64,000 bases of DNA from Minutocellus sp. GHC0000111 (lineage: Eukaryota): the NCBI GenBank assembly GCA_977018835.1, contig OZ361256.1:620001-684000 (forward strand), in the 5' to 3' direction. Position numbers and translations under genes: made by a program. Positions within the stretch are counted from its first letter, which is position 1. Every line of letters begins with the position of its first letter. Shown here in pieces: positions 2,184-48,270 of this stretch. The notes beneath the pieces are model-generated. The model was not told the DNA's origin. It worked only from the letters and a program-made list of their open reading frames with translations, and did no database searches.

Positions 2184-2476
2184 CGTTTGAGTGTCTGTAG
2201 TGCGGTGCTCTGCAGCTGCTGCTAGTTGAGTGGGCTGCCTAGCAACGTAGAAATGAAGTAGGTAGAAATAAATGGCAAGGCGTAAACACTCAGACTGGGT
2301 CTTGGAGTCGAGTCGTCGTCGTCGAATGCTCGCCAATCCAGTCGTCGGACGTCGTCGAGTGCACCGGAGCAAAGCAGACTGACTACCTCTGCTACCGCAG
2401 CTACCACTATAAATAATGATCAGCGCGGCGCCGCGTGAAGCACGTACCTAGGCCTAGGTACCTAGGCCTAGGTACC

Positions 2477-2980
2477 AGTGAAAGTACGGCGACTTCCGCA
2501 CGAGATTAGGGTCCTTGGTAGGACGTCAAACTCGTGAGACAAAATCCACAAGGACGGCGAAAATCGATGTCGAAGACAAAGATGAAAGGATACACCTTCC
2601 CCGTAGAATGAACGTTGATATGTCGCAGACGATAAACCGTAAAGAGAATAAAGTAAACGAAGAGAGATGATCTGACTATTACTAGTCGATCCGTAGATTC
2701 CTGCTTGTCTAGTACAAAGTTGGCTTTGCAAAGTTGACAAACTAAAATTTATGCGAGAAAGACGAGACGATTGTGCTGATCCAAGACCGACTCCGCCTTG
2801 GATCGGCGATCTTGTAGCGATCTTGGATTGTTTCATCTACGATACTACTGAGCCAAGCATGCTGTACTTTGTACAGTATCAACGCTCAACGCGCTACTTG
2901 TCTCGGGCAGCTGAACTAAGATACCGTCGTTTCTGTTTGTGCCAAAATGACAACAGAAAGAAACATCGGCTTCTCCAACT
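2477..2980 (-). repeat. 3' LTR (504 bp)
   Basis: Matches 6157-6660 except one substitution seen (actaaaattt vs actaaaaatt); preceded on the minus strand by polypurine tract GAGAGGGAG (2981-2989). Confidence 0.95.
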
Positions 2981-3107
2981 CTCCCTCTCGTAGAGTCTCT
3001 TCTCAAATTGTAGTAAGGACCAAAGCAATTAAATTCCATGATCGAGGGGAAGGTCTTAAATCCGAATAAACCCCTGAACTGGAACACAAATATAAACATA
3101 AATAGAT

Positions 3108-5169
3108 CTACCATCCTTGATTCATCTTCCGAATCCGTTCAAACACGAAGCAAGGGTTCATCTTGGTCATGTAATCCGCACGCTGCAGATTTGTAGAGAT
3201 GTACTCGACGGTAACATCTCCACGTGATACATATTCCCAAAAGAAATGCCATTTGACGTGAAAGTAGCGAGTACGACTCGTGATGCGATGATTGTTGGCA
3301 AGCAAAACAGCAGCACTGTTGTCCTCAAAAACTGCAGAACGGACGGTAGTATTGATAGAATCAGGAACCTCTAAGGCATTGGCCAGCTCCAGTACCAACG
3401 ATCGAATAGGAATCAAAGTTCGAATCGAATGGCTCAGGCTCGTATACTCAGACTCGAGCGTCGACAAGGCAATGTCTGATTGCAAGAACGATCGCCAGAC
3501 GAGAGGAATGTTACCAAAGAAAATGATATATCCAGTACGAGAGCGAGCACTTGAGGACGAACGATCAGGGTCACGACGATAGAGGCCAGCAAAATCGGCA
3601 TCGACGTACAACTCGAGGTTCATGTTGGAAGAAGGAGCGACAATAGTACCAAAATCACGAGTACGACGAAGGTATCGGACAATCATCTTGACGGCAAAAG
3701 GCGTGAGACTTCTTCGGCGAATGGATGAATCGACAGACCTGGCTGACGGCGAAGGTAATGTCAGGCCTAGTATTGGTCGATAGGTACAACAACATACCGA
3801 CGACAGAACGATAGGACCAGCGGAACCCAACCTCAGTAGAATCCATCGGCTCTCCATCAGGATCAACGCCGAGAGCAGCCTGAGCAGCAGGCGTCCAATT
3901 CAAATTCGACTGCTCGAGACCGGTAGTAGAGACAATCTTGTCGATGAGGCCTCGTTGCGTCATGTGAACGCTCTTGCCATCTTCAGACGACGTGATCTTA
4001 ATACCAAGAAACTCGGAGAAACTACCCTCTTGAGTCAACTCAAATCCCTTCACACGCAAATCATTGACGAGCTTGTCAATGTCGGCGGGATCCTTAGCAG
4101 CAATCCCTGCATCGTCAACGTAGAGAACAAGCATCATGTTGGGCTTGTACATGAAGCAAGGATCGTGAGCCGACTTCTGGAAACCAAGGTCGAGCAAGGC
4201 AGAGGACAGACAGCGCCACCAAAGCAGCGGAGCGGCCCGAAGTCCATAAAGTGAGCGGCGAAGCTTCAAACAATAACGACCGGCCTTGCCAGCATGGAAT
4301 CCTCGAGGTAGATGGATCCAAATGGGCTTCTTGAGCTTGGCTTGGACGAAGGCGTTGCTGAAATCAATCGATATTGTCTTCCAACTCAACTTGAGCGCCA
4401 TGACAAGAAAGATACGGACCGACGACCAGGCACAGACCGGAGAGTGAGTTTCCTCTTCACCGTCCTGCAAGTCACCGCGAACGCAATATCTCGCCTTGAA
4501 CTTGGTCGGATTGCCATCTGGATCGCGCTTCAACTTGAAAACCCAAGTACCAGGCAGCACTTTGCCCTTGGCATTCTCAAGCAGATCCAGCTCCCAAGTA
4601 CCATGAGACTCAAGCTGCGCGATCTCCTTGCGAGCAGCCTCCCTCCATTGAGCACTATTATCAGGATCGTTCATGGCAGTAACGAAATCAATAGTATCGG
4701 GATCCCCAACATCACTGGCAGCAGTCGACGACGCGGCCTGAAATGCATACTGAGTAGACATGCTGCTCGGTTCGGCACGGTTATGACCACGAAGATGCTC
4801 CAGTTCGGCAGCCGTAAGCAATGCAAGAGGATCAGTGGGCGTGGTATACGAGATATACTCGGTTGCTGGACCGATCGGCGCAGAAACATAGGCATCGGAG
4901 GCATCGCAAAAGTAGCCATGAGATTGATCTCCCTCGTATCCGTAGCGAGTCGACTGGCGCTGACCGGCAGTACTACGTCGAGAGGAACGAGTCGGTGCTG
5001 CTGCACTCGATTTCTCCCTCTGCGCACGCGTCTGTACCGGCGAATACGGCCTCGGCTCATCAACGGCATCAATAGTAGGGGTCGGCACATCCACATCCGT
5101 CTCGATCGCATCCGTCGGGCGGGGTGGGAAGGTTCGCACCATCAGGGTTCGGACGCTGAATGACGTCAC
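3108..5169 (-). pseudogene. Copia reverse transcriptase + RNase H, frameshifted near 3695
   Basis: RT motifs KFKARYCVRGD, IDFSNAFVQA, LRRSLYGL, LYVDD, RPDITFAV; RNase H motifs YVDADFAG, RSRTGY, FEDNSAA, QRADYMTK lie in a second frame. Confidence 0.93.
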
Positions 5170-6156
5170 TTTGAGACACCATAGGCGCAGAAAGCCTCCC
5201 GCCAGAATTCGAGGAAACAGAAGGGACGGAATTGGAATTGGTCAAAGTAGAGGTCGAAACGGACTGCGAATTGTCCACTGACGACGAAGACTCCTCCCTC
5301 GTTGACGACTCCCTCATATGAGACGAGGAATCGATGCGAGGTGAGACTGCGGGCGCATCCACAGGCAGCGGCACCACAGGCTGCTCCCGCGACATGGCCT
5401 GCTCGACGCGCTCACGACGACGGGACGGATCGACATCAGGGGCGGTGCCGTCATGAATGTCACCGTCATCATCGGCGTGATCGTCATCAAAAGTATACTG
5501 AAACATGGAATCACCGAAAAGCTTCTGCCACTCCGGCGACTCAAAATCAGGAATAGAGTCGACGCTACTCTGCACCGTCGAAAACCAATCATCAAAGACG
5601 CAATTGTAAACATAGTAAGCCTTGACCTTGAGACGACGAAGCTTTCCAGCAGTATCGACAACAACCCACGTCACATATCCTCGTCCCTTGATACTGAGGC
5701 CTTTGGCGAGGCCCTTGACCTTGGTGATGGCTCCTGGCGGCTGCATTCCGTCAACGAAATCCTTGGGATCATTGGTAATGCAGACGGTGGCGCCCGAATC
5801 CCAGATAACAGCAAAGGACGAAGACGAGTCGATAGCATGACGAAGACGAGACGGAGCAAGAAAGGCCAGTCCAGCATCGATATCGGCAGTGGAAGCCATC
5901 ATGATCTGAGCCTCGTAGAGGGTTCGATTCATCGCACGACGACGACGACGAGAGACACCATTATGACCATGATGAGGATCGACTTGCCCTGATGCAGGCA
6001 CTGGACGATAGGTTGTATTGACTGGGCGACGATTGGGACGACCAAGAGGACGATTGTTGGGTCGACGGTGAATGGAGCGAACTTCATGGCCTTCTCCCTC
6101 TCGATCCATTCGACGACGATGACGACGATGACCACGACAACGGTGGGCTCGTAACC
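5069..6156 (-). pseudogene. Copia aspartic protease fused directly to the integrase C-terminal tail
   Basis: VIWDSGATVC and IKGRGYVTW are followed directly by YNCVFDDWF; no HHCC zinc finger or DDE core seen. Confidence 0.8.
6144..6156 (-). other. Primer binding site GGTTACGAGCCCA (half-tRNA-iMet type)
   Basis: Abuts the 5' LTR; resembles the GGTTATG(G/A)GCCC PBS of copia/Ty5-type elements. Confidence 0.7.
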
Positions 6157-6660
6157 AGTGAAAGTACGGCGACTTCCGCACGAGATTAGGGTCCTTGGTA
6201 GGACGTCAAACTCGTGAGACAAAATCCACAAGGACGGCGAAAATCGATGTCGAAGACAAAGATGAAAGGATACACCTTCCCCGTAGAATGAACGTTGATA
6301 TGTCGCAGACGATAAACCGTAAAGAGAATAAAGTAAACGAAGAGAGATGATCTGACTATTACTAGTCGATCCGTAGATTCCTGCTTGTCTAGTACAAAGT
6401 TGGCTTTGCAAAGTTGACAAACTAAAAATTATGCGAGAAAGACGAGACGATTGTGCTGATCCAAGACCGACTCCGCCTTGGATCGGCGATCTTGTAGCGA
6501 TCTTGGATTGTTTCATCTACGATACTACTGAGCCAAGCATGCTGTACTTTGTACAGTATCAACGCTCAACGCGCTACTTGTCTCGGGCAGCTGAACTAAG
6601 ATACCGTCGTTTCTGTTTGTGCCAAAATGACAACAGAAAGAAACATCGGCTTCTCCAACT
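6157..6660 (-). repeat. 5' LTR (504 bp)
   Basis: Direct repeat of 2477-2980; flanked by TSD GTACC and the PBS. Confidence 0.95.
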
Positions 6661-9600: not shown

Positions 9601-9906
9601 GAGGACATTCGGCGACGGACAGACCGTTTTGCTAACTTCGCAGGGGCTACATGCCCCTAAAAAAGGTCATTCTTGCACCCATTTCTCATTTCCCACCACG
9701 TGTTTTGTTAGTCGATATTCTCTTCGGGAGGAACGCAAATACTCCTCAACTCGTGGATATCTACTGGACCTGCTCATTCAGTAGGTTGCCACCGACCAGT
9801 AGTATCCACTGAATTCGCAGGTCCAGTAGATTCTGGCAGGAACACATATATTATTTGGTCCCCCGCACACACCCTCACCACACCGCAACCCGCAAATTTT
9901 GTGACG

Positions 9907-12778
9907 ATGACGACGACCAACCAGACCACGCCCAAAAAATACAAACGCAGCAGAACTTCGTTCTCAGGGAGCAAGAGAGGCAGCACCAAGGCATCCAGGA
10001 AGGCGGCAAAGGCGGCACTGAGCCGAAAACACCATCGCCGAGCGCAAACACGTCGGTCGAAGAAGCGGCCACGGACGGTCAAATTCGCCCGCCAAACCGT
10101 CACCGTCGTCGGCGAAGAAGAGGACGGCCCCTCCTCCTATCCCCATGGCCTTTCTCCTTGCAGCAGATGTCATTCGAAGGGCTGGTAAGGATCTGTGGTG
10201 GAGAGTAACCCCCGATTCCTGCGGCAAAGATGACGTTTGTGTTGGTTCTCGGCAGAAATGGGAAGACGTCCTCCCTGCTTTCATCGAGGCCGACTTGTTG
10301 CGTTCCAAGTCCGTCGGTGGAGGAAAGTATGAGCTACAGTACAACGAGGAAAAATGGAAGGATATGCAGCAACATCTCAAGGAGCATTGTAGTTTGAAGT
10401 TGCACTTGTCGACGTATCGGCCGAGAGGGAAGACAAGACGCAGGGCGCTTTACTTTATGTTTGTGCTCACAGGTTGCGTAAAAAGAAGGAGGACAACCAC
10501 CCGAAATTCTCTGGACCGGAGGGACAGAAGGTGCACGAGAAAAGAAATCCCGATGAAGTTCTGTTCTCTGGGCGCTCGACTGTCTTAGCTACTAAGCTAG
10601 GTGAGAGGTTGTCAGCTCACAGAAAGGAGGTACAGTCAGCGCATTGCGAAGCAAGAGTAAAATCACTAGTCGACGAGGCCAAGAAACTGGGTTGGATGCC
10701 AGCAAGTCTCCTCAGCATACTGAAGGGAACTGGTGATACTTCCGCCACTGAAGCAGCTGCAGCCTCCCCCAATGATGAAGGTTTAGGAGGAGCCGATACT
10801 TCCGTTGTCTGTGCCACCTCCAGTGACATTGATGAACAGGTAAAGGTCGCTCTCGGCCTCGACTTTGTTGTTCGGATGGCCAACGATGACATGCTCCGTC
10901 CTCCTCGTCCCAATGCAACCGTCACCGAACCAATACCAATCAGAAAAGAAAAGCAGGCGAATGAAAGAATGCGGTTCAGCGCCGTGGCTCTCGCGGATTG
11001 GTGGGGACACGGCGACCCAACTCGCACGCATGAAGACCGGCGGCAACAAATTGCAACTGCCGCGTGTCGGCAAGTTGCGCACGACGATCACGGTTATGCC
11101 AAGTCAACCGGTGGTTCTCAGCTTTACAAGTGGAGAGACCAGCTCTACAAAAGCCTTACTGATGGCATCAGCAATCCCATCGGCAGAAAGGAGGTTCGTG
11201 GAAGGAAGGCATGCACGGACATGATCGAGGAGAAGGAGCCAGGATGTCTCCGCGAGCTGTGTCGGCATGCTGCTCGGATGAAGGGTGCGATGGCAACCTT
11301 TAAGGAGCTAGCTGACTGCATGAGCGCAAAATCAGCTACTCCAGATGAAGACAGGCTGACAATTAGTCTCCATCGTCTTCAGCTTTTTCGCTGGTGGAAA
11401 AAGCAAGGCGGCAAGGAGAAGTCGTCGATCGAGAAGCCGAGGCTCACCCCCGAATGTTGTAGGAAGCGACTTGATTGGATCGAAAAGTGGGAGGACATTA
11501 CGACCGATCCCAACATTCCTGTAGCGTGTCTTGATGAAAAGTGTTTTTTTTTCACTGCTGCTCGGCGACGAAAGATCAAGATGTTGCCACTTTCTGACGA
11601 AGAACTAAGCAGTCCGAACCTCGCGTCTATCCATGCTTCCGAGGCAAGCCCGAAAATTCGATCCAGAAGACACCCTGTCAAAGTTATGCATCTTGGAGTT
11701 GTTGGCCGACCAATGAAGGATGAAACCAAAGACGTTGATTTCAATGGGCGCATCATGATCAAGAGAGTCGCCAGGGAGCAGAAGGTGGAAAAGCTTACGC
11801 GTAATCAGAATTTCTCTCCAGATGCTAAGGTCAACGATGCGCTAAAAAATGACAAAGATTGGCGCGACATTTACGACGACGACGAGAATGCTGACATGAC
11901 CGCCGGCCATCTTTGCGACCACATTGCCGAAATCTACGGCCTTTCTGAGTTTGTTACAGAGCGATTGGAACTTCAATACGAGGACTATAAATCCGACGGT
12001 CAGGCAAAAAGTCGCAAGCATGCCGCTGTTGGCTGTGCAATCAAAAGATCTCGAGTCTCAAGCGACACACTCCTGATAGCACAGCAATGGAGAGAAGGTG
12101 AAGGTTGAGATCGACGACCTTGAGCTCGGGGTGCGGCATCAACGGGGCGATAAGGTTACCAAGGACTGTAGCTGCGACTCCAAATGGATGTTGGAGACTA
12201 TGAATGAGGTCGGGAAGGCGATTCGAGACGCACATCATTGGGTGAAGTGGGATCCACAAAACATTCAGGAGTCTGATGTTGCATGTCTCATGATGGACAA
12301 TGCCGGCGGTCATGGGTCCAATGAAGCAGTTGAGAAGTACACCGAGGACCTCAAAAACAAATATAAGATTGAGATAATCCAGCAGGTTCCTCGGTCGCCC
12401 GAGACAAATGTTCTTGATCTCGGCATCTGGATGTCTTTGCAGTCGGCCGTCGAAAAGGAGCATCGCGGTCAGAAGAATGATGCGAATGCTCTTGACAAGA
12501 CTGTGATGAAAGCATGGGCCAATGTCGCATCAAAAGAGGCCTTTCTCAATGTGAATGGAAAACTTCCAGTGACATATAACAACATCAAGAGAAGTCGTGG
12601 CGGTAACAATCTTGTGGAGACCAGACGGGGAAAGGCTGGTCTCGCAAAAATTGCCGAGGAAGAAGCTGAAGAGGATGGTGAACCACTCTGGCCAATTGAT
12701 GCTCCCGGCGAAGATGATGACATTGAGGACGACATAGATGAAAATGATGAAGACGATGGAGTCATTGATTTGCTATAA
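9907..12778 (+). pseudogene. Frameshifted Tc1/mariner-superfamily transposase, DD39D type, with long N-terminal extension (ORFs 9901-10188, 10145-10588, 10474-12108, 12098-12778)
   Basis: Motifs LDEK, KVMxLGVVGRP, MDNAGGHG and SPETNVLDLGIW; 39 residues between the 2nd and 3rd Asp; TIRs not identified; inclusion of the two upstream ORFs is inferred. Confidence 0.85.
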
Positions 12779-13376
12779 CTTATCATAGCATGTCCATTTC
12801 TATTCATTACATTTTGATTTGGTGCTTCCAAAAATGTTTTTTTTCCCGGGGTGAGGAATGCAAATGTCGAAAAAAAATCATCACATAATGTACATTTATT
12901 GGTTCTGGTGCACAATATCTCTCGACTATATGTAGAAGTTGGTGACCATAACTTGGTTCTTGCCCCGACTTCCATCTTGGCCGTCATTTATTCCTCGGAG
13001 TTAGAAAAAGTGAGCTTGGATTTTTGGTCTGGTGTGGTCGTGTTTGTTTCTAATACGTCATCATCACGTCACTTTCAAATCCTCTGAACTCGAAAGGTAG
13101 CTAGTAACCCGCTCTGTCTTTGTGCTTGTACTGCCTCCCTTTGTTGGTCTATCTAGAGCCCAACACCGTTGTAAACATTAACATTTGCACATAACCTCCG
13201 TAATTTAGATCTATTTGGCCACCATGGCAGCCCCAATGCCGATCCTCCAAGAGGCATGCGCGGTGGCTGGCATTCATTCGTTTAGGGCCTTAGACACTTA
13301 GACACGTGTGTGGAGTGCCACAAAGCTGAGCTGACAACAGCTAGCTTCGTCCCAAAAATGCATGTTGAAGCGTGAA

Positions 13377-13745
13377 ACAAAGCACAAAAGCACAAAAGTG
13401 CAAAGTGCAAAGTGCAAAGCACAAAGCACAAAGCACCACCAAAGCACAACAAAGCACAAAGAGCACAAAAGTGCAAAAGTGGTAAGTGCAAGGCAGATTC
13501 AAAGTAAAGCACAAAAGTGCAAGAGTAGACTGGTGGGGATGTTAGCAGCTGTGGTGAATGGGATGAGCACTGGGTGGTTTGGGCGGGGCTTGGAGGGTTA
13601 GCAGTTGTAGACCTGCCAAAGCACAAAAGCACAAAAGTGCAGAAAGCAGCAGCACAAAAGCACAAAGCACGAAAGCACAAAAGTGCAAAGTGCAAAAGCA
13701 CAAAGTCCAAAGTGCAAAAGTGCAAAAGTGCAAAAGTAAAAAAGT
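13377..13745 (+). repeat. Satellite of (GCACAAAA/GTGCAAAA)n with an embedded ~100-bp complex unit (13522-13620)
   Basis: Visible 7-8-bp periodicity; same family occurs in reverse at 37560-38637. Confidence 0.9.
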
Positions 13746-14224
13746 GCCGATGCCCGGCACCAGCAGCAGACATGGCTCTCCGCACGACCACACTCAACAG
13801 TGCATTGTTAGCAGTTAAAGCTATCAAAAGGACAGGATCAAAGAAGAAAGACATGAAGAACAGTTGTCCTTGAACATAGAAGACGTGGCAATAATTGCAA
13901 CGCACGGGAACCCGGAACTTAAGTCCGGCGAGGAAACATCTGGTAGAAGCGCAAACGCTTGCACCCAACACCCGAGGATGGGGCCGCAGCAGGCGACTGA
14001 ATGTCACAGCATGGAACGAGGAGGAGACTGGGACCGGTCCTGGTCTTGCCGGCATGTTCTTTGACACAAACACACGGATGCGAGGACTCCTCCTCGACCA
14101 GACTTTGCGAGGACTCCTCGGCACGGAGGAGTTCATGTCAAGCAAAACACGGCGGCTGCTGCTGCTGCTTCAAAAAGCTAAAGGCGCTTTGTCAGTTCTG
14201 CAATGTTTCCATTACATCTTTATG

Positions 14225-14289
14225 ACGCACGTGAAGAAGCAATGTGCATTGACTCACTCGACTAAGATGACCCATGAATTCCTCTCTCA
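14225..14289 (+). repeat. 65-bp module duplicated at 38704-38768; contains CACGTG and TGACTCA
   Basis: Direct alignment shows 3 mismatches; lies ~50 bp upstream of the ATG at 14341. Confidence 0.85.
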
Positions 14290-14340
14290 TCAACCTCAAC
14301 CCGCCAAGGCGCAGGCATAAGGCAGTCACAAAAAGAAGCC

Positions 14341-17088
14341 ATGATGAACGAAGATACCGGTACTACTACCGACGCACCGCCCATCGCTCTGGACGGTGAG
14401 GTCACTACCTCCACCGTGTCCGCCATCCCCGCCGTCGGCCCCTCTGACGTCGTGGTATCGGCTAGCGAACATGCGAACGGCACCAATAATTGCGACATTA
14501 GCGGCACTACGTGTAGCAATTCTGCCGTAACTGCGGCGGCAGCAACTGCAGGCAGTAGCAGCCGTCGCCGAAGGACCAAGAAGGTTGCCAAGCGGAAGCG
14601 TCGGCCCGACGGCGAGGACGACGACGAAAGCGTGGAAGCACCCGCAGCTGTTGCGGCTGCACCACCGCCGGCAATAACAGACATACCGCAGTCCAACATG
14701 ACCAAGATCGAGTGGATGCGGTACCGCCAGCGTCAGCGAGATGAGCGCAGGAGGCAGATCGTGGCCGACATTGTCGAGCGGAGGAGGCAGAACAATTTGA
14801 GCGGCCGGTCCAATTCGACGACGCCGAGCGATGGTCCTATCGACGATGGCGCACCAAGCATGTCGGGTAAGCAGCGACAGGAGCATAAGCAACGGATTAT
14901 TAGTAAGAAAACGTCCAGCAGCGTCGGATGGAGTGCCGATAGCAAGGGCAGTGCCACTGACGACGACGACGACGAGAATTCTGTATCCGAAGGATCTTTC
15001 AGCGGCAGCCCCACCTCCTTTGTCCGTCGTCGTCGGCAGAAGCAGATGCAGATGCAGAGGAGGAGGTCCAGCAGTGACTTTATCATGCTGGACACCACCA
15101 CTACCAGTGAGGACGATGACGACGACGACGACGACGATGGCGGTGAGAAGGGAGCTGGCGACAGCAGCAGTGAGTACCACGACTCTGAGGACGGAGATCT
15201 TAGTTCGTCGGACGACAATTCGGATCAACATGCCGACGGTGCCATCGTTACATCCACCCGTCGCTCGACACGCAACGAGGGTAGCACCGCCATCGCCAGA
15301 ATCACCAAGGATGTCCGGGCAGCATCTGCGAGGGCTAGATCGATCGGAAGCAGGGCAGATTCTGCTGGTACTTTGCGTGCTAGCATGACCAGACCGTCCA
15401 ACGGCGACGCGGCCACAACCCCATTCAACGCATCCTTCACTGCCGATGACCCAGGAGTGCATGTAGGAGGTGGCCGACGGACCAAGAAGGTGCGGAGTGC
15501 CAAGCGACTGGTCACTGTATCGATGCCCCGAGCGGGCCAGGCTCTCAAAGGCCAGGCCATCATGCTGGCAGGTAGCGTCGCCAGCGGTGAGAAGAGCGGA
15601 GAAAGCGGAAGTGACAGTGGTGGCAGTGCACTTTCGGGCGGCGAGGCTGTCGATCATGCAGTTGCCGGCGCAAAGCCAGCGGCGGGCAACAAGATCTCGA
15701 CTCAGCGCGCTCAAGTCCGGCAGCAGCCTCAGCCTACAACTTCATTTCAAGGTCAACACGCCGGCGGTCAGAGGGCGACCCTGAATGCCACCGGCGGGGC
15801 AAATGTTGCCATGCCTCCTTCTATGTCGCAGTCCCAACCGCATCATCAGCAACTACGTCAACAAGCACAAGCCCAGCAGTATCTTCCTCAGCAATCATCG
15901 CCGCAGATATCTCCCGGACCTCCGGGGCATGAACGGTCCAATGTGAGCGACAATGTCGCCATGGCATTCAATAGTGCCAACGCTGATACTACTTCAGGGA
16001 ACGGGGCTCCGACGCGAAAGAGAGGGCGGCCTAAGAAGAATTTTGACTCCTCCGGTATGAACATCAACAGTTCCAACATACCAAAGAGGAACCAACCCGC
16101 TTCGCTCCCACTTTCGGATCCACCCAAACTGGAGGGAATTGTTGGCCAAGTCCAGCAGCCCGTATCTGTACCTACTAGCCTAGTCTTTCCCACTGGCATA
16201 GAGGAGACCGTATCTAAGGCAGCGTCCCTGGTCGCCGCCGAGATCAAGTCTGGCTGCTGGGTACGCCAATGGGCTGATGGCCTCAATATTGTCGATACCG
16301 CCGACAACATCGATATGACTCGAGTCGAGAAATTGCGAGGTGTTGCATTGCACACCGCCGCGGCGGCGCTGGAGCAGTTTGCTATGCAAATGATCCTTCC
16401 GTCCTTCATTTCGGCTGGTGTCAGAGAAGGTCCTGGGTGCGGCACTGATTCAGATTCCTCATCTGGAGGTAGTCATCGCACACTATCTGGTACATTTTTG
16501 GCGCTGCGAGAAATTTTAATGATTAACTCTGATTCTTATTTCTTTCATGTGGGTCGCTCCGATAAAGACAGGCCCGTTCCAACACCTGAGAACGGTCGTA
16601 ACTCGACTTATGGGTCGGAAGAGAAAGTTCTCACGTCTAGGCTTATTGCAACAGGTGTCCTCTTTGCCTCCGTGAATAGACTCGACGAAGAGAAGGAGAG
16701 TGTGCTTGCGGATCTTGTTGCTGCAATCGGTGAGTACGACACCGCGGAGGACACCTTCGTCCTTTGCTTGGAGCGAGCTGATGGGCAGTCTTTGGGCATG
16801 CTGCCCAATGGCCATGCTCTTGGCCAGGAAGAAAATATCGCTTGGGTGGTGAGTTTCAATGCTGCAAGAGAGAAACACCCATTGATCACTACGAAGAAAC
16901 GAAGGGATTTGGCTCGGCGACTTGCTTCCTATTCAAGCTCTATCTCTGATGAGCACAAGACTAAGCTTGCCAACAGCGTCTTGAATGACACGATGCATAC
17001 TTTGGATATGCCCAAACCGAACGCTTGTGCATTATATTTTGTCGGAGAAGATGGCATGATGATGCCAGGCTCAAGAAGCCCGAGGTGA
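14341..17088 (+). CDS. Hypothetical 915-aa low-complexity, probably nuclear protein with an AT-hook-like motif
   Basis: Long uninterrupted ORF; basic NLS-like runs, acidic tracts, RKRGRPKK. Confidence 0.75.
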   Translation: MMNEDTGTTTDAPPIALDGEVTTSTVSAIPAVGPSDVVVSASEHANGTNNCDISGTTCSNSAVTAAAATAGSSSRRRRTKKVAKRKRRPDGEDDDESVEAPAAVAAAPPPAITDIPQSNMTKIEWMRYRQRQRDERRRQIVADIVERRRQNNLSGRSNSTTPSDGPIDDGAPSMSGKQRQEHKQRIISKKTSSSVGWSADSKGSATDDDDDENSVSEGSFSGSPTSFVRRRRQKQMQMQRRRSSSDFIMLDTTTTSEDDDDDDDDDGGEKGAGDSSSEYHDSEDGDLSSSDDNSDQHADGAIVTSTRRSTRNEGSTAIARITKDVRAASARARSIGSRADSAGTLRASMTRPSNGDAATTPFNASFTADDPGVHVGGGRRTKKVRSAKRLVTVSMPRAGQALKGQAIMLAGSVASGEKSGESGSDSGGSALSGGEAVDHAVAGAKPAAGNKISTQRAQVRQQPQPTTSFQGQHAGGQRATLNATGGANVAMPPSMSQSQPHHQQLRQQAQAQQYLPQQSSPQISPGPPGHERSNVSDNVAMAFNSANADTTSGNGAPTRKRGRPKKNFDSSGMNINSSNIPKRNQPASLPLSDPPKLEGIVGQVQQPVSVPTSLVFPTGIEETVSKAASLVAAEIKSGCWVRQWADGLNIVDTADNIDMTRVEKLRGVALHTAAAALEQFAMQMILPSFISAGVREGPGCGTDSDSSSGGSHRTLSGTFLALREILMINSDSYFFHVGRSDKDRPVPTPENGRNSTYGSEEKVLTSRLIATGVLFASVNRLDEEKESVLADLVAAIGEYDTAEDTFVLCLERADGQSLGMLPNGHALGQEENIAWVVSFNAAREKHPLITTKKRRDLARRLASYSSSISDEHKTKLANSVLNDTMHTLDMPKPNACALYFVGEDGMMMPGSRSPR

Positions 17089-24720: not shown

Positions 24721-24925
24721 CGGATGACCAGGAGGATCGACGTTGCACACATGTAAGGCTCGGTACTATGTATGACAAAAATCAGCAAAGAAAGCCCGGC
24801 ACTGCCTGTAAACTAGCAGGCAGTGGCCACTATGCATTCTATTGAGTTCCTGGTTCTATTATTACTAACGCGACACCTTATATATATACATGTATTATCT
24901 GTTGTACCGGTACTTATTTTATATA

Positions 24926-25219
24926 GAGCGTTTCCACGAGACCGCCGACAAAATCACTGAAAATAGTAGCCACTAGAAAATATTTTTGTGCGAAAAATTT
25001 CACGTCAATAAAAATGAAGCCACTAGATCGAGCTCAAAATCTCGGACCCAAACCCAGCGACTTGTTAGTAAAGTACCCCAAGATCATTGTACCAAAGTAA
25101 CTTTATTGTTGATTATGGTCTAAAACATCCTTCTAAGCAGTAATCAGCAATAAAATTACTTTGGTACAATGTTTACGAAACATCGCGGAGGGGGTGTCGG
25201 CTCTCTCGTGGAAACGCTC
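24926..25219. mobile_element. MITE (294 bp) with TIRs and TA flanks, Tc1/mariner-type non-autonomous element
   Basis: Perfect 16-bp TIR GAGCGTTTCCACGAGA / TCTCGTGGAAACGCTC, extending to 25 bp with 2 mismatches; TA on both sides; internal 31-bp inverted repeat at 25085-25115 / 25141-25171. Confidence 0.88.
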
Positions 25220-25243
25220 TATATAATTAATTCTTCCTATGCA

Positions 25244-27923: not shown

Positions 27924-28250
27924 GATGTGGATTACCGGTAGGGTACATGTAGGAATCCCTATTTGTTAATGGCAATGAGATCAACATGTAAATCTAACGG
28001 CCGTACATTTACATGTACTACTTAGTACCTCAGGGGGGCTCTATCAGTACCAACCGGTACCGGTGCCATTGCCGAAGAAGAAGGCAGGCATGCTACGTAA
28101 CTACGTACGTACGTAGCTTGTATTGCTTGAGTTAGTCGAACAAGTCTCAATTGATGACTCAGTGGACTTTTTTTGACGGGGCAGAGTTTGTACTAGTACC
28201 ATATCCGTCATAAAACCTCTCCTGGTGCCGACGAAAAGCTGCAGAGGAAC

Positions 28251-36307: not shown

Positions 36308-36709
36308 GGCACGGTGTCTATGCTGCTTGGTATGAGTCAATAACGATAAACAATACGATAGTGTAACTTTATTTGGTCTGTTCAACGAATGAGGTTGGTG
36401 GACGAAGAAATGATTTTCCCGCCAAAACCGCCACGAAAAAAGGCGCCAAAGCTGTGGCGCAATTTTTTGAATCGAACGGGAGGTGTGATGAATCCAATAA
36501 CTTGAAAACATGTTCCAACTAATGAGACAACAACAGAAGTAAATAAAAAGGGATGACAGTTTTCGTTTGAGTATACCTCAAAAGAAATAGCAAAAGCGAG
36601 CCTGGCGGCACGTGGCGCCCTGCCGACTCTCGACTCAATTTTTTTGGCGACGGCCAGACTCTTTTTTCTGAGATTTCGAGAGAAACAAAAGCAAGAGGCC
36701 GCCCAGGCA

Positions 36710-36951
36710 GTCACAGTGGCCAGTGGCGAGTGGCGGCGAGTGGCAGCAAGTGGCAGCGAGTGGCCAGTGGACAGTGGCGAGTGGCAAGTGGCGCCAAGTG
36801 GCGAGTGGCAAGTGGCGAGTGGTGAGTGGTGAGTGTGGAGAGTGGTGAGTGGCCAGTGGCGAGAGAGTGTGTGTGGTGGTGTGAGTGGCGCATGACCAGT
36901 GGCACATGGCAAGTGGCAAGTGGCGAGTGGCCAGTGGCACATGGCAAGTGG
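36710..36951 (+). repeat. Degenerate 7-bp tandem repeat (NAGTGGC)n
   Basis: cagtggc/gagtggc/aagtggc/gagtggt units; no TA dinucleotide seen. Confidence 0.9.
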
Positions 36952-37559
36952 CTTGTTCCGACTTCAGGTGGTGGTCCCGGCTACATTTTTGGACATTTTC
37001 CTTTGCGTCGTCCTTCCGTCGTCCGTGTTTCAACACGCGGCGAAGCATGGGAGAGAGCGCGAAATTCGCCGTCCGGCCGACCTTTGCCCCCAAGAATCTC
37101 TGGAATCAACAGGAGATTCGAGTCAGCCACGCTCTTGTCACCCATCTAGACACCCTGTAGATTGGTGACATCGAAGGCGCAGCTCAAAAATTCCAAGCAC
37201 AACATGTGTTTGGTGGGGGCAAAGTTTCGCGAGAAAAACGATGACGCCGGACGAAGTTTTGCTGCTGCTCTCATTGGCGGCCGATGCGGGGGGGCGGACA
37301 CAAATCAAAAACACAACAATCAACCAAACAAACCTTTTCATGCATGTCTCGGGCGCGCGTGTCTCTGCAATTCTGGGTCGATCGGGCGACTGTGGCTCTC
37401 ACAGCATCTCTTCTCATCCGCGGTGCTTTTTTTCGCGCACTCGAACACAGGTTGATTGTTTTGAAATGTGTTTTCTCACACACAACAACAGTCCAATCAA
37501 GCTGAAACTTTCGCATGCGTAGCGCAATGGCGTCGGCCATCCTCTCTCTTCTTTTGAAA

Positions 37560-38637
37560 CTTTTGCACTTTTGTGCTTTGAATCTGCCTTTGTGCTTTTT
37601 TTGCACTTTGCACTTTGTGCTTTGGACTTTGTGCTTTTGTGCTGCTGCTTTCTGCACTTTTGTGCTTTTGTGCTTTGGCAGGTCTACAACCGCTAACCCT
37701 CCAAGCCCCGCCCAAGTCATCCAGTGCTCATCCCATGCACCACAGCTGCTAACATCCCCACCAGTCTGCTCTTGCACTTTTGTGCTTTGAGTCTGCCTTT
37801 GTGCTTTTGGACTTTGGACTTTGTGCTTTGCACCACAGCTGCTATAACACATCCCTGTCAGTCTGCTCTCTTGCACTTTTATGCTTTGAGTCTGCCTTGC
37901 ACTTTTTTGCTTTTGTGCTTTTGTGCTTTTTTGCACTTTTGCACTTTTGTGCTTTGTGCTCTTTGTGCTTTTGTGCTGCTGCTTTCTGCAGAAGAAAGCA
38001 GCAGTTGTGCTTTGTGGCAGGTCTACAACTGCTAACCCTCCAAGCCCCGCCCAAACCACCCAGTGCTCACCCCATGCACCACAGCTGCTAACATCCCCAC
38101 CAGTCTGCTCTTGCACTTTTGTGCTTTGAGTCTGCCTTTGTGCTTTTGGACTTTGGACTTTGTGCTTTTGTGTTTTTTTGTGCTTTCGTGCTTCTTTGTG
38201 CTTTTGTGCTTTGTGCTGCTGCTTTCTGCACTTTTGTGCTTTGGCAGGTCTACAACCGCTAACCCTCCAAGCCCCGCCCAAGCCACTTTGGACTTTTGTG
38301 CTTTTGTGCTTTCGTGCTTCTTTGTGCTTTTGTGCTTTGTGCTTTGTGTGCTTTTGTGCTGCTGCTTTCTGCACTTTTGTGTGCTTTTGTGCTTTGTGGC
38401 AGGTCTACAACCGCTAACCCTCCAAGCCCCGCCCAACCAAGCCATCCAGTGCTCATGTCCCATGCACCACAGCTGCTAACATCCCTGTCAGTCTGTCTGC
38501 TCTTTTGCACTTTTGTGCTTTGACATGCTTTGAATCTGCCTTGCACTTACTTTTGTGCTTTTGTGCTTTGTGCTTTGCACTTTGCACTTTTGTGCTTTTG
38601 TGCTTTTGTGCTTTTGTGCTTTTGTGCTTTTGTGCTT
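37560..38637 (-). repeat. Satellite (TTTTGTGC/TTTTGCAC)n with 3 full and 2 partial copies of the ~100-bp complex unit
   Basis: Units at ~37676-37770, 38016-38110 and 38398-38495, partial at 37829-37868 and 38243-38283; reverse complement of 13522-13620. Confidence 0.9.
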
Positions 38638-38703
38638 GGGTCTTGGTGATGGACGTCGCGCCTGTCCTCCGTTCACGTTTACGTATGGCGTAGAGGTGTA
38701 CGT

Positions 38704-38768
38704 ACGCACGTGAAAGAGCAATGTGCATTGACTCACTCGACTAAAATGACCCATGAATTCCTCTCTCA
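38704..38768 (+). repeat. Second copy of the 65-bp module (14225-14289)
   Basis: Direct alignment; ~170 bp upstream of the ATG at 38936. Confidence 0.85.
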
Positions 38769-38935
38769 ACCCCTCAACTCAACTCTTGCATCGAGACCGC
38801 TGGAAGATACCGGCCGATACTGGCACCACGGCAAGTCACACACCTCAGCTACGACCTGCTAGTGCGCCGCACCGAAGCTGGAAGGCATTGCTCTACAATT
38901 GATACCACAGCAATCGCCGCCGGCGCCGACACAAG

Positions 38936-43908: not shown

Positions 43909-46017
43909 TCACCTCTGCAGCTTGATGACTCCTCTAAGAAGGCTTGAAACCGCGGGAGTGAGTCTTTGCTTGTTGTAGATGTCACCGGCAAGGCGGATGG
44001 CTTCTGCTGTAGTTGGGTAAGGGTGTATAACATAGGCAAGCTTGTCCAGCGCAGTGCCTTGCTGCATTGCCAAGGTCACTTCGCTGATCATGTTGCCAGC
44101 TGACTCGCCAACAATTGAAGCACCGAGGATGGCTCCGTTCTGAGCATCTACACGAAACCTAACCATTCCCTGGGTGGCAGCATCGCACAAGGCTCTATCG
44201 ATGTCGGCAAAGTGCTTTTCGATGATTTTGTACTTGATACCACGCTCTTTCAGATCCTGTTCAAATAGACCCACAGAGGCAATCTCTGGCGAGGTGAACG
44301 TGGCATACGGTATGAGGAGCGATGAGCTCTTGCCTTTGCCAAAGAAAAGGGCATTGCGTATGGCGGTTCGGGCGTAAAAATCTGCCGCATGAGTGAATTT
44401 GAACTCTGAGGCACAGTCGCCCACACCAAAGACGCGCGAGTTTGTTGTCTGGAGGCGATTATTGACCTTCAAACCATATTTCGTGTCAAACTCGATGCCG
44501 GCCTTTTCTAGATCCATTCCGGATACGTTAGGACGTCTGCCGGCGGCTATCAGAACGGCATCGCAGGTAATCTCAGCATCAATCTCACTGCCGTCAGACG
44601 ATTCACCAAACTTCATGATCATCCGAGGTAGCCTATTATCTGACACTTGGCCAGTGAGCTCGATACTCTTGTATTGGGAAACATTGAGCTTGAACTCGAC
44701 CCCGTCCTCTTCCATTTGGGCCTTGACAATGGCTGCGAGATCTTCGTCCTCCTTTGGCAGTACCTTCCCAGAACGACCAAACATGGTAACGGCCGTGCCG
44801 AGGCGTTGGAATGCCTGCGCTAGTTCCATCCCAATAACCCCGGTACCTATCACAACCAAACGAGTTGGCTGCCGTGTCAGATTAAAGACAGATTCATTGG
44901 TCATAACAGCAGGTGGAGGCGTTGCATTGTCCGCGAGGTTCTCGGCAGTGGCCAAGTCGTGTAGCTCCTTGAGGCCTGGAATTGGAATGAGAGAAGGGTA
45001 TCCTCCAGTTGCCACAATCGCTTTCCGAAATTTCAACGTCTCCCCATTGACCTCGACGCTCCGATCCGATGTGAACTTGCCCCGCCCAAAGTAGAGCTCG
45101 ACACCAAGCTCCTTGGTGAATCTTTGGGCTGAATCGTGGTGAGAGATCTCGGCTCGTATCCTGCGTACGCGCTCCATGACCTTGCCAAAGTCAACATTGA
45201 CCGCCTCGGCGCCACCATCGATGGATATACCTGCGTCAGCGAGATGGTCCATGTCACCACGGATCTTGTGGGCGAGATTGGCGCTGTGGATGAGCGCCTT
45301 GCTCGGGACACATCCCACGTTGAGACAGTCCCCGCCCATGAGATTCTCTTCGATTAGAGCCACCTTGGCCCCCACGCCGGCCGATCCCGCCGCACTCACA
45401 AGTCCACCAGTACCAGCACCGATCACCACGAGATCGTACGTAGGCGTTCCGTCATCACTACTAGCAGGATTCTCCCAGTTCAGAGGATGCACGTTGTCCA
45501 AAAGCTCGGTATTAAACCCATCCAAAGGCCACACGTGCTTGGCGACGTGAACATCGGAGGCAGATATGGCATCAAAGTCTGGTCTGGGAAAGTTGGGATG
45601 AAGATTAATGTTGCCGGAATTTTCTTGCTCCTGGTCTGGGGATGAGAGGAAATCGGACCACTGAAAGCTCTTGCCCGTCGTCTCGTTGTGCGCGACCTTC
45701 CCGCGCCGTTTCTCGTCGACGAAATGAAAGAAAAGATTTTCGTCCTTGAACGCATGGTCGCGCGTCACGTGCTCGAACAAATGCGCCTGAGACTCCAGGG
45801 CCCGTCCAAGGGCGACGGCGTCTTCTCTCGTTTCGGCATGTCCGCTCGATACGAGGAAGGTAACGGCCTCCCGTCCAACGAAGCAACTTTTGTAAGTTTT
45901 GAGAAGGTACTTGCGATCTCGCAAGTCGACGCCATCCCTGAAGGAGCTCGCGATGACCTCCAGGGAGCTGGCTAGCTCTTCGCCTGCCTCTGTAGCAAAG
46001 CTCTGTTCGGAAGACAT
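43909..46017 (-). CDS. DEP domain fused to a class I pyridine nucleotide-disulfide oxidoreductase (MerA/LpdA-like)
   Basis: DEP: LRDRKYLLKTYKSCFVGREAV...ALGRAL..FEHVTRDHAFKDENLFF; reductase: VIGAGTGG, GGDCLNVGCVPSKAL, VIGTGVIG, IHPYPT. Confidence 0.9.
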   Translation of the reverse strand: MSSEQSFATEAGEELASSLEVIASSFRDGVDLRDRKYLLKTYKSCFVGREAVTFLVSSGHAETREDAVALGRALESQAHLFEHVTRDHAFKDENLFFHFVDEKRRGKVAHNETTGKSFQWSDFLSSPDQEQENSGNINLHPNFPRPDFDAISASDVHVAKHVWPLDGFNTELLDNVHPLNWENPASSDDGTPTYDLVVIGAGTGGLVSAAGSAGVGAKVALIEENLMGGDCLNVGCVPSKALIHSANLAHKIRGDMDHLADAGISIDGGAEAVNVDFGKVMERVRRIRAEISHHDSAQRFTKELGVELYFGRGKFTSDRSVEVNGETLKFRKAIVATGGYPSLIPIPGLKELHDLATAENLADNATPPPAVMTNESVFNLTRQPTRLVVIGTGVIGMELAQAFQRLGTAVTMFGRSGKVLPKEDEDLAAIVKAQMEEDGVEFKLNVSQYKSIELTGQVSDNRLPRMIMKFGESSDGSEIDAEITCDAVLIAAGRRPNVSGMDLEKAGIEFDTKYGLKVNNRLQTTNSRVFGVGDCASEFKFTHAADFYARTAIRNALFFGKGKSSSLLIPYATFTSPEIASVGLFEQDLKERGIKYKIIEKHFADIDRALCDAATQGMVRFRVDAQNGAILGASIVGESAGNMISEVTLAMQQGTALDKLAYVIHPYPTTAEAIRLAGDIYNKQRLTPAVSSLLRGVIKLQR

Positions 46018-46297
46018 GTTATTATGTTGAAGTGACCAGGAGTTATTATGAAGTACCGGCCGATAAGCAACTGAGAGCAGTTGAGAGGTATTGGCTCTTT
46101 TGCCAGCACCAAAGATATTGCAATATGCTCGCACGCTTTTCTCTCCTCGCTCCGGCTGACATCAGTTCAACTGTACGTACGTTACCCGTATTATGTACGT
46201 ACTAAAGACGTATGTAAATGCACTACATCGGCATTTTCATCGGCATCGGCCTCACTCGTCACTGTTCCTCGCCTCTCGATCTCGCCCGAGATAAGAG

Positions 46298-47551: not shown

Positions 47552-48270
47552 AGAGTGTTATCGGTTGCCGCGCATCACATAAGATGTAGCTTCAATTGAG
47601 GGCCTTGGAAGAGAGAGTATTGGAATCCGCGGAGAGCTCGGTCACCTTCAGAACAAGGCTGCAGAAGTCGCGAAGGAAGAGGAGGCCTACTGGAGAGACA
47701 TGTCGATTGTCGGAGGAGCCCATCGTGCCGATACTGCCTCTCGACTTACATTCTCGCCGAAGCATCGGGCAACTGACCCTCCTGCTCCTCGCCTAAGTGC
47801 AAGTACAAAGTCTTTCAAAGACACCATCGCGCAAGCCGAAAGCAACAATACCGTCCTCAAGCCATCGACCAATGTCAAGGACCACGGACAACAAGATACC
47901 ATGCTGTTGGAATCATAGAGCAGTGGCGTGCCGCCGCCTACCGCTTCCAGAAGGGGTTGAATGTATTTGACCAATAGACTAGACCTAAGCAAACCCCAGT
48001 CCGTACATACATGTACATGTACGAGGTATAAACGTCTACGTGCTAGAAAATTGTCATACGGTACATGTACGAGGTCGTACCTCTAGGCCTACGTAGCTAG
48101 GTACGGCTCGAACTAGAGAAAGACACCCGGAAGAAAGAAACCGTTAGTTACCGGCTCGCCGCAAGCTGTCTCATTCTCACAACCAAAGTAGAGCACCAAT
48201 AGACCCAACGACTTCTATCAAGACCGCCAACAAGATACGGCCGTAAGATACCTGCAGGCTTGCTGGCAGG

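Follow-up and report, generated by a model that had tools for sequence, protein, structure and literature searches.

The closest described counterpart of the process reported here comes from Bigelowiella natans, in which TpA is mutated to TpG or CpA at about 1000 times the background rate in two viral inserts, according to passages of a preprint by Mettrop et al. (bioRxiv 10.64898/2026.01.13.699255). The same passages report that TpA-depleted coding sequences of B. natans are enriched in DDE endonuclease and reverse transcriptase domains, and propose an ADAT2-like deaminase, which is unproven (bioRxiv 10.64898/2026.01.13.699255). Two deaminases have preferred contexts described in passages of the literature, namely TadA with its substrate UACG (PMC10586758, PMC8052359) and ADAR with its preference for UAG (PMC10661471). 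Diatoms are described, in part of one report, as having DNMT4 enzymes related to RID (PMC9998398).

We analysed a window of 64,000 nucleotides from the diatom Minutocellus sp. GHC0000111, in which a first-pass annotation had proposed context-specific loss of TpA from repeats. TpA hypermutation of foreign DNA is already present in passages of the B. natans preprint (bioRxiv 10.64898/2026.01.13.699255). A diatom report of TpA hypermutation was not found in the open-licence PMC and bioRxiv literature.

The starting point is a non-coding block (36590..37550) with four TA dinucleotides against 47 expected, no RTAY against 11.8 expected, and normal CpG. The four TA lie where they had been placed by eye, at 36982 (CTAC), 37147 (CTAG), 37158 (GTAG) and 37520 (GTAG). 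The observed/expected ratio (O/E) of TA is 0.08 in the block (4 against 47.2 expected from base content) and 0.59 in the whole window. CpG is as plentiful as had been claimed (68 CG against 73.6 expected, O/E 0.92), and the O/E of TG plus CA is 1.41. The block is the lowest-TA stretch of 961 bp within the window. Sliding windows of that size outside 35.6-38.7 kb (n=1199) have a minimum TA O/E of 0.29 and a median of 0.60, and the block's TA count has a Poisson P of 2e-8 at the window-wide rate. All four survivors stand in CTA or TAG, as had been pointed out, although taken by itself this is weak evidence (P = 0.02 when every TA context in the window is the reference and 0.12 without RTAY). A short-read contig shows 0 differences from the window over 36457-36979, which excludes a base-calling artefact. 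An Rfam search of the block gave 0 matches at E<=0.1.

Could the block be explained without any new process, by methyl-CpG decay (CG to TG or CA) combined with expansion of TA-free satellite units? TG and CA are also products of such decay, and part of the block is indeed a TA-free array. However, CG stands near its expected number in the block, and with tandem arrays taken out 5 TA are left against 41 expected, a loss that CpG decay is unable to produce. Together with the evidence from transposon copies given below, this makes the explanation very improbable.

The block belongs to a larger TpA-erased domain (36576..38683) that sits between two divergent ORFs. It is the longest RTAY-free gap of the window, bounded sharply by RTAY sites at 36572/36574 and 38684, and it has 0 RTAY against 28 expected and 8 YTAR against 9.4 expected. 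The three longest RTAY-free gaps, 36576-38683 (2110 bp), 13128-14354 (1226 bp) and 10933-11976 (inside the transposase), all lie in repeats, and the mean RTAY gap of the window is 81 bp.

The left part of the block includes a degenerate AGTGGC-type tandem array (36714..36952, forward strand) that is at single-copy read depth and has no TA, and contig depth over 36555-36923 is mostly single-copy. The segment 36925..37544 belongs to an unclassified dispersed repeat family, of which it is a diverged member, with a family boundary at 37544 and all four surviving TA inside. Its summed contig depth, taken from four public runs (at most 3 samples and 2 studies; the organism A runs among them may have supplied the assembly itself), exceeds that of single-copy DNA about 5- to 600-fold. 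The right two-thirds of the block is multi-copy repeat, and TG or CA sites of the window still read TA in other copies. The annotation's view that TA loss is restricted to repeats holds for this multi-copy part of the block, but the part at single-copy depth is likewise TA-depleted.

Variants between copies of this family were compared at the 40 listed of 89, of which 38 lie inside the block, with the direction of change set by the family majority rather than an outgroup. Among the listed variants in the block, 6 are sites at which TG or CA in the window corresponds to TA in other copies, five or six of them RTAY. The opposite case occurs once, at 36982, where the window has CTAC and most other copies have CTGC. 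Two listed variants are CA/TG swaps between copies, and there are also 5 of CpG type, 3 other transitions and 19 transversions, many of the latter from one diverged contig. A degenerate pattern made from the block's repeat gave 0 matches in metagenome contigs.

The right part of the domain is a TTTTGTGC/TTTTGCAC satellite in which a longer unit is embedded (37551..38640, forward strand). By 8-mer counts, its large array has 39 units of the CA form, 15 TG, 1 TA and 0 CG, and the small array has 14 CA, 12 TG, 2 TA and 0 CG. These forms are compatible with a TA ancestor, without being proof of one. A second TpA-erased domain (13131..14354) retains 31 TA, none of them RTAY (0 against 16 expected), and its YTAR number 14 against 5.5 expected. 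At 13372-13750 it contains the same satellite in inverted orientation, and at about 13773-14009 a different dispersed repeat. The two TpA-erased domains each have at their right-hand edge (14225-14300 and 38704-38778) a piece of 75 bp, in direct orientation and 92% identical between the two. It stands directly upstream of two different long ORFs, whereas the satellite common to both domains is inverted instead. Satellite and transposase survivors had been described as mostly TAG or CTA, which is borne out in the large satellite (12/15, in repeated units) but not in the transposase, where the 94 TA divide into 38 CTA/TAG, 32 TTA/TAA and 24 RTAY.

The transposase belongs to a high-copy, Tc1/mariner-like DNA transposon (9654..13099, forward strand), in which it is frameshifted into pieces at 10022-12778. 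The element's ends are sharp at 9654 and 13099, its depth is hundreds of times that of the flanks, one protein cluster alone has 275 members, and its CG O/E is 0.94. The family assignment is weak. A Pfam search with the window transposase ORFs and P0040 gave no hit, a PDB profile search with the transposase gave 0 hits, HTH_Tnp_Tc3_2 appeared below cut-off in 5/16 transposase relatives, and the ends of the window copy share only a few inverted bases. DEK and DNAGGH motifs are visible in the transposase, its Atlas neighbours are DDE_3/Tc1-like at 0.87-0.90, and the Atlas cluster closest to it consists mostly of Bacillariophyta, as judged on the 4 members that have a record.

Several smaller features were seen in and near the transposon. 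A 73-bp imperfect palindrome (9759-9831) lies near its left end, a low-copy repeat beside it (8800-9450) has a mixed spectrum of TA-type, CpG-type and other transitions with TA-type changes at 8 of the 35 listed variants, and further along is a 308-bp MITE-like element with 32-bp arms (24919-25226). Among 12 listed indels of the transposon (9654-13099), 11 are extra letters in the window copy, and 6 of the 7 that span at least 3 nt are perfect tandem duplications, with protein copies behaving alike. The repeat copy at 36925-37544 likewise has many small insertions relative to other copies. Such duplications may have been left by nick repair that goes along with the process and provides material for the satellites.

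Copies of the transposase provided the mutation spectrum. The set consists of 112 family proteins on contigs >200 kb, a subset of several hundred, from which 8 identical ones were dropped to leave 104. These copies are probably from the window's own assembly, since a protein 99.8% identical to the window's Copia and one transposase copy share one contig. The spectrum was derived from predicted proteins and uses the flanking bases of the window copy, from which family flanks may differ. A to G changes after T occurred at 555/2775 positions (20%) across the 104 copies, and after other bases at 20/5864 (A, 0.34%), 33/4610 (C, 0.72%) and 9/7270 (G, 0.12%), so that the rate at TpA is about 60-fold higher than at ApA. 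C to T changes before G came to 23/4222 (0.54%) and before other bases to about 0.1%, with all four contexts within 0.09-0.5%. A stricter count, limited to sites with TA in the window copy and made before de-duplication, gave 180/1805 (10%).

Tyrosine codons showed the direction of change most clearly. At 25 non-fixed Tyr columns, with three further columns fixed as His in the family (inherited) left out, the 732 cells comprise 194 His, 179 Cys, 2 Arg and 357 Tyr, with 0 Phe, Ser, Asp or Asn. None of the 375 changes is a transversion, and the transversion rate in the rest of the transposase copies is 0.02-0.12%. Cys or His appears at random in copies at columns that have Tyr in close relatives and outgroups. 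The one-step ancestors common to TGY and CAY are TAY and CGY only, and because outgroups have Tyr the ancestral codon was Tyr and not Arg. An intact relative (L001, 70% identical) has Tyr at 19/19 scored sites, and of its 14 RTAY sites that align at the DNA level, 11 read TG or CA in the window. Tyr to His is fixed in nearly all copies at four columns (10534, 12019, 12233 and one unmapped) where close relatives keep Tyr, so that the founder of the burst was itself mutated and the family still spread.

A spectrum dominated by CG to TG or CA, with no excess of change at TA, was looked for; what the copies show instead is A to G after T at 20% against C to T at CpG of 0.5%. For the transposon this refutes methyl-CpG decay. 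A background of such decay is visible, as C to T at CpG runs about 4-6 times above background in the transposon, the satellites have a CG O/E of 0.15, and several distant relatives in other hosts decay at CpG. Ancestral Tyr codons cannot yield Cys and His by this route.

The net AT to GC change that is seen would also arise if copies underwent GC-biased gene conversion, or if TA were selected against as an insertion target, and Tc1/mariner elements do insert at TA. However, A to G changes outside TpA are at 0.1-0.7% against 20%, the choice of Cys or His is independent in each copy, contrary to conversion, and selection is unable to drive loss to 80-100% across many sites of each copy that is already dead. 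We regard this pair of explanations as a shade more improbable again than CpG decay. Least probable of those considered is ADAR-like RNA editing followed by reverse transcription, or else a long-read base-calling artefact. A-to-I editors do prefer U at -1, as stated in a passage of the B. natans preprint (bioRxiv 10.64898/2026.01.13.699255), but the element is a DNA transposon, both strands are changed about equally and UAG is the spared context; as for an artefact, independent short-read contigs show both the window's letters and the variant states.

The copies differ independently in Cys/His outcome, and hence most changes postdate insertion. All four Cys/His combinations occur in 52/64 column pairs, with 6% of pairs at p<0.05, and 27 well-covered copies have 25 distinct Cys/His patterns (both before de-duplication). 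Strands are about equal (179 Cys against 194 His), and only 2/375 sites carry double changes. Same-strand pairs number 687/1315 (0.522 against 0.493, P=0.014), with P=0.19 within 60 bp. A processive pass along a single strand was considered and is unsupported, the same-strand excess being slight and not significant at short range. Mutation load varies among copies beyond chance (chi2 120, 47 copies, p=2e-8), which age alone could produce. Along the element, the load at Tyr sites falls from 67-100% at 11008-11689 to 16-31% at the last three sites. Across all copies, five of six RTAY Tyr sites at 11977-12778 have a load of 16-48%. Taken together, these results suggest that a domain was acted on repeatedly, in many separate rounds.

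Counted per edited strand, the context of change follows a simple order. RT[A]Y was changed in 453/1388 cases (33%, 47 sites), CT[A]Y in 67/339 (20%, 12 sites, median 13%), TT[A]Y in 60/423 (14%, 15 sites), RT[A]A in 20/383 (5%, 12 sites), RT[A]G in 5/190 (3%, 6 sites) and YT[A]R in 0/194 (9 sites). Across sites, a pyrimidine at +1 differs from a purine at p=1e-9, and a purine at -2 from a pyrimidine at p=2e-4. The +1 pyrimidine is thus the main need and the -2 purine helps; in duplex terms RTAY is changed first, YTAY and RTAR are slower and YTAR is safest. The two older domains described above fit this rule, being devoid of RTAY (0/28 and 0/16 expected) and having kept YTAR (8/9.4 and 14/5.5). 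The annotation had held that TAG and CTA are spared. TAG is, but any purine after TA protects, TAA like TAG, and CTAY is still changed at 20%; we therefore dropped that rule in favour of an RTAY target in which CTA is slow and not immune. There are exceptions, at column 298 (TTAT, changed in 18/27) and at three CTACT sites (19/31, 19/26 and 7/25, or 28-73%), which may reflect inheritance from a subfamily founder. No preference for G at +2 was seen in transposase copies, and TAT is changed like TAC.

Host DNA in the window provided the controls. Tyr after purines is retained at 22/40 sites in a DUF7650 gene and 10/14 in Tam41, against 1/8 in the first transposase ORF. In 16 hand-picked intergenic segments (6656 bp) the TA O/E is 0.86 (range 0.50-1.46) and the RTAY O/E is 1.21, so unique non-coding DNA is not equally depleted of TpA; 6 of these 16 single-copy segments have moderately low TA (O/E 0.50-0.62). 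The two intergenic examples that had been singled out as rich in TA words, 27940-28130 and 48000-48110, are so, with O/E of 1.56 and 2.17, and GTAC and other RTAY words reach 2.5-5 in them. RTAY-rich intergenic DNA set against RTAY-erased repeats is a contrast that would serve as a self/non-self signature. A duplicate at 49.2-49.8 kb had no clear TA signal. When a host gene was searched against the Atlas, the matches were mostly bacterial clusters and pointed to no taxon. Two window ORFs start with signal peptides ending in an AF motif, a combination typical of ochrophyte plastid targeting, and the ORF at 43909-46161 fuses a DEP domain to a mercuric-reductase-like pyridine nucleotide-disulphide oxidoreductase.

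A young, low-copy Copia retrotransposon (2474..6660, reverse strand) is not hypermutated and served as an internal negative control. Its LTRs are 99.8% identical, with 1 difference that is not at TA, and have an O/E of 0.74; the RTAY O/E is about 1.0, and Tyr is retained at 15/15 positions against the representative of its cluster. Among 120 listed relatives of the Copia RT, Fragilaria crotonensis is the only named eukaryote (2 entries), and there is one bacterial bin label. Its pol (3108-6205) is split over three frames, and the N-terminal part looks internally deleted. In this one 64-kb window, then, change is confined to mobile DNA, with the longest RTAY-free gaps in repeats and host genes, most intergenic DNA and the young Copia spared.

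Distant relatives of the transposase behave differently. Only 1 of 128 distant representatives with >=4 scored Tyr columns each has at least half of them as Cys or His, and of 34 metagenome loci 1 is TA-erased (L016) and about 8 have lost CpG; both are biased towards intact proteins, and a Tyr was required by one of the search patterns. Since distant relatives in other hosts mostly keep TA, its loss is a property of the host and not of the element. The one TA-erased locus (L016:314-832), a distant transposase fragment, has a TA O/E of 0.06 and Cys at two conserved Tyr sites, and TA returns in its flank. Eight loci (L020, L024, L026, L027, L029, L030, L032 and L033) have a CG O/E of 0.10-0.34, keep TA and carry 3-11 stops (2 in L030), which is CpG decay of the classical kind, affecting this transposon group in hosts other than the diatom.

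The pattern in this window is a polarised, repeat-associated TpA hypermutation that consists of transitions only, acts at TpA only and prefers RTAY, a reading to which we assign a probability of about 0.9. The core of the first-pass proposal, context-specific mutation of TA to TG or CA in repeats, thus survives, as the change is polarised by outgroups, is not CpG decay, and is absent from host genes, most unique intergenic DNA and the young Copia. One change per site is final, because the product is no longer TpA.

As to mechanism, the agent is on balance probably an enzyme that deaminates adenine in repeat DNA, a candidate of TadA/ADAT2-like or other deaminase fold. The TadA/ADAT2-like candidate is suggested by the T at -1 and pyrimidine at +1, which match the UACG of TadA and not the UAG of ADAR. 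A pure A:T to G:C transition is what adenine deamination to hypoxanthine is expected to give, according to a passage of the B. natans preprint (bioRxiv 10.64898/2026.01.13.699255). On this reading the block derives from repeats, and its TpA steps became TpG or CpA in the way seen in the neighbouring transposon family. A candidate host DNA adenine deaminase would turn adenine into hypoxanthine, which would be copied as G, and changes would build up over many rounds, on either strand and copy by copy. Because RTAY is symmetric, it may also be the duplex that is read. On the matter of a homology trigger, high-copy repeats are changed, the 4-member young Copia (99.8% LTRs) is unchanged, and a stretch at single-copy depth is changed. 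Given that the domains end sharply, that DNA at single-copy depth is included in them and that the young Copia is spared, we suggest that targeting would be by a silenced chromatin domain and not by strict base-for-base homology. The effect would be the disabling of transposons; that the transposon family reached hundreds of copies counts against a defence role.

Two other chemistries deserve consideration beside adenine deamination. Oxidised thymine on repeats (5-hydroxymethyl- or 5-formyluracil made by a TET/JBP-type enzyme) could pair with G and give T to C at TpA. In the duplex, T to C is indistinguishable from A to G, and with a symmetric RTAY site the sequence is blind to the difference. 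Oxidised T lesions are usually less clean than transition-only, and here there are 0 transversions in 375 changes. In dinoflagellates 5hmU marks transposons, as described in passages of one paper (PMC11572971), which contain no diatom case or mutagenic effect. We consider thymine chemistry unlikely, though it is the alternative that we take most seriously. Slightly less likely still is an error-prone polymerase or repair pathway (Pol eta-like, with a WA motif) in repeat chromatin, misinserting G opposite T at TpA. The slightly higher rate of A to G after A than after G would fit, as would the many short tandem duplications in copies, which suggest active nick repair. Pol eta makes many A to T and A to C changes and strongly affects AA, whereas TpA here is far above ApA and Tyr codons have no transversion.

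A broader possibility that we hold tentatively, at rather less than even odds, is that the candidate DNA adenine deaminase forms part of a dedicated diatom defence, steered to silenced repeat domains and editing RTAY on either strand to exhaustion. Such a system would be an A-to-G counterpart of RIP with an origin in common with the B. natans process across SAR, and if it is real it would be a source of native DNA adenine editors. Current adenine base editors had to be evolved from tRNA enzymes, and a natural deaminase of genomic DNA adenine at such a scale would, if confirmed, be new. The hunt for the enzyme is testable in diatoms, which are genetically tractable, and the RTAY rule, with TA before a purine spared, is a constraint that any candidate must reproduce. 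The process also distorts transposon dating, consensus building and annotation in diatom genomes, by turning Tyr into Cys or His and erasing stop codons.

Compared with known systems, the process resembles fungal RIP (RID/DIM-2) in being repeat-associated, dinucleotide-specific and transition-only and in ruining transposon genes. RIP creates TpA, and there is little strand coordination here. Its C to T change, as given in a passage of the B. natans preprint (bioRxiv 10.64898/2026.01.13.699255), is opposite to the A to G seen here, where C to T is at only 0.09-0.5%. Methyl-CpG decay of silenced transposons shares the TG and CA products and the kind of target, and is present at a low level that is about 40-fold weaker than the TpA process. 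ADAR editing fixed by retrotransposition would affect one strand and UAG, whereas both strands are changed here and TAG is spared. With TadA/ADAT2 and the evolved TadA base editors, as far as passages of the literature describe them, the process has in common A to I read as G, T or U at -1 and C at +1. Natural TadA, in those passages, edits tRNA and needs G at +2; here there is no +2 preference, TAT is changed like TAC and a -2 purine helps.

The B. natans process is the nearest. As its preprint describes in part, it is likewise confined to A to G and T to C at TpA, on both strands, in foreign or mobile DNA. B. natans is a rhizarian, and there the process concerns two integrated viral regions, the larger of them single-copy, in which TpA is partly depleted (Rho 0.45); mutation there is ongoing and is on in some lines and off in others. 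The consulted text of the preprint has no match for context, trinucleotide, TAG or diatom, and its mutation table could hold flanks. In the diatom, by contrast with those passages, hundreds of transposon copies are affected, near saturation, under an RTAY rule and with a bounded 2.1-kb domain. TpA-to-TpG/CpA hypermutation, described there for two viral inserts of a single rhizarian alga, is thereby extended to high-copy diatom transposons, and the process described here is best seen as B. natans-like, to which it adds a host group, a read-out from many transposon copies and the RTAY rule.
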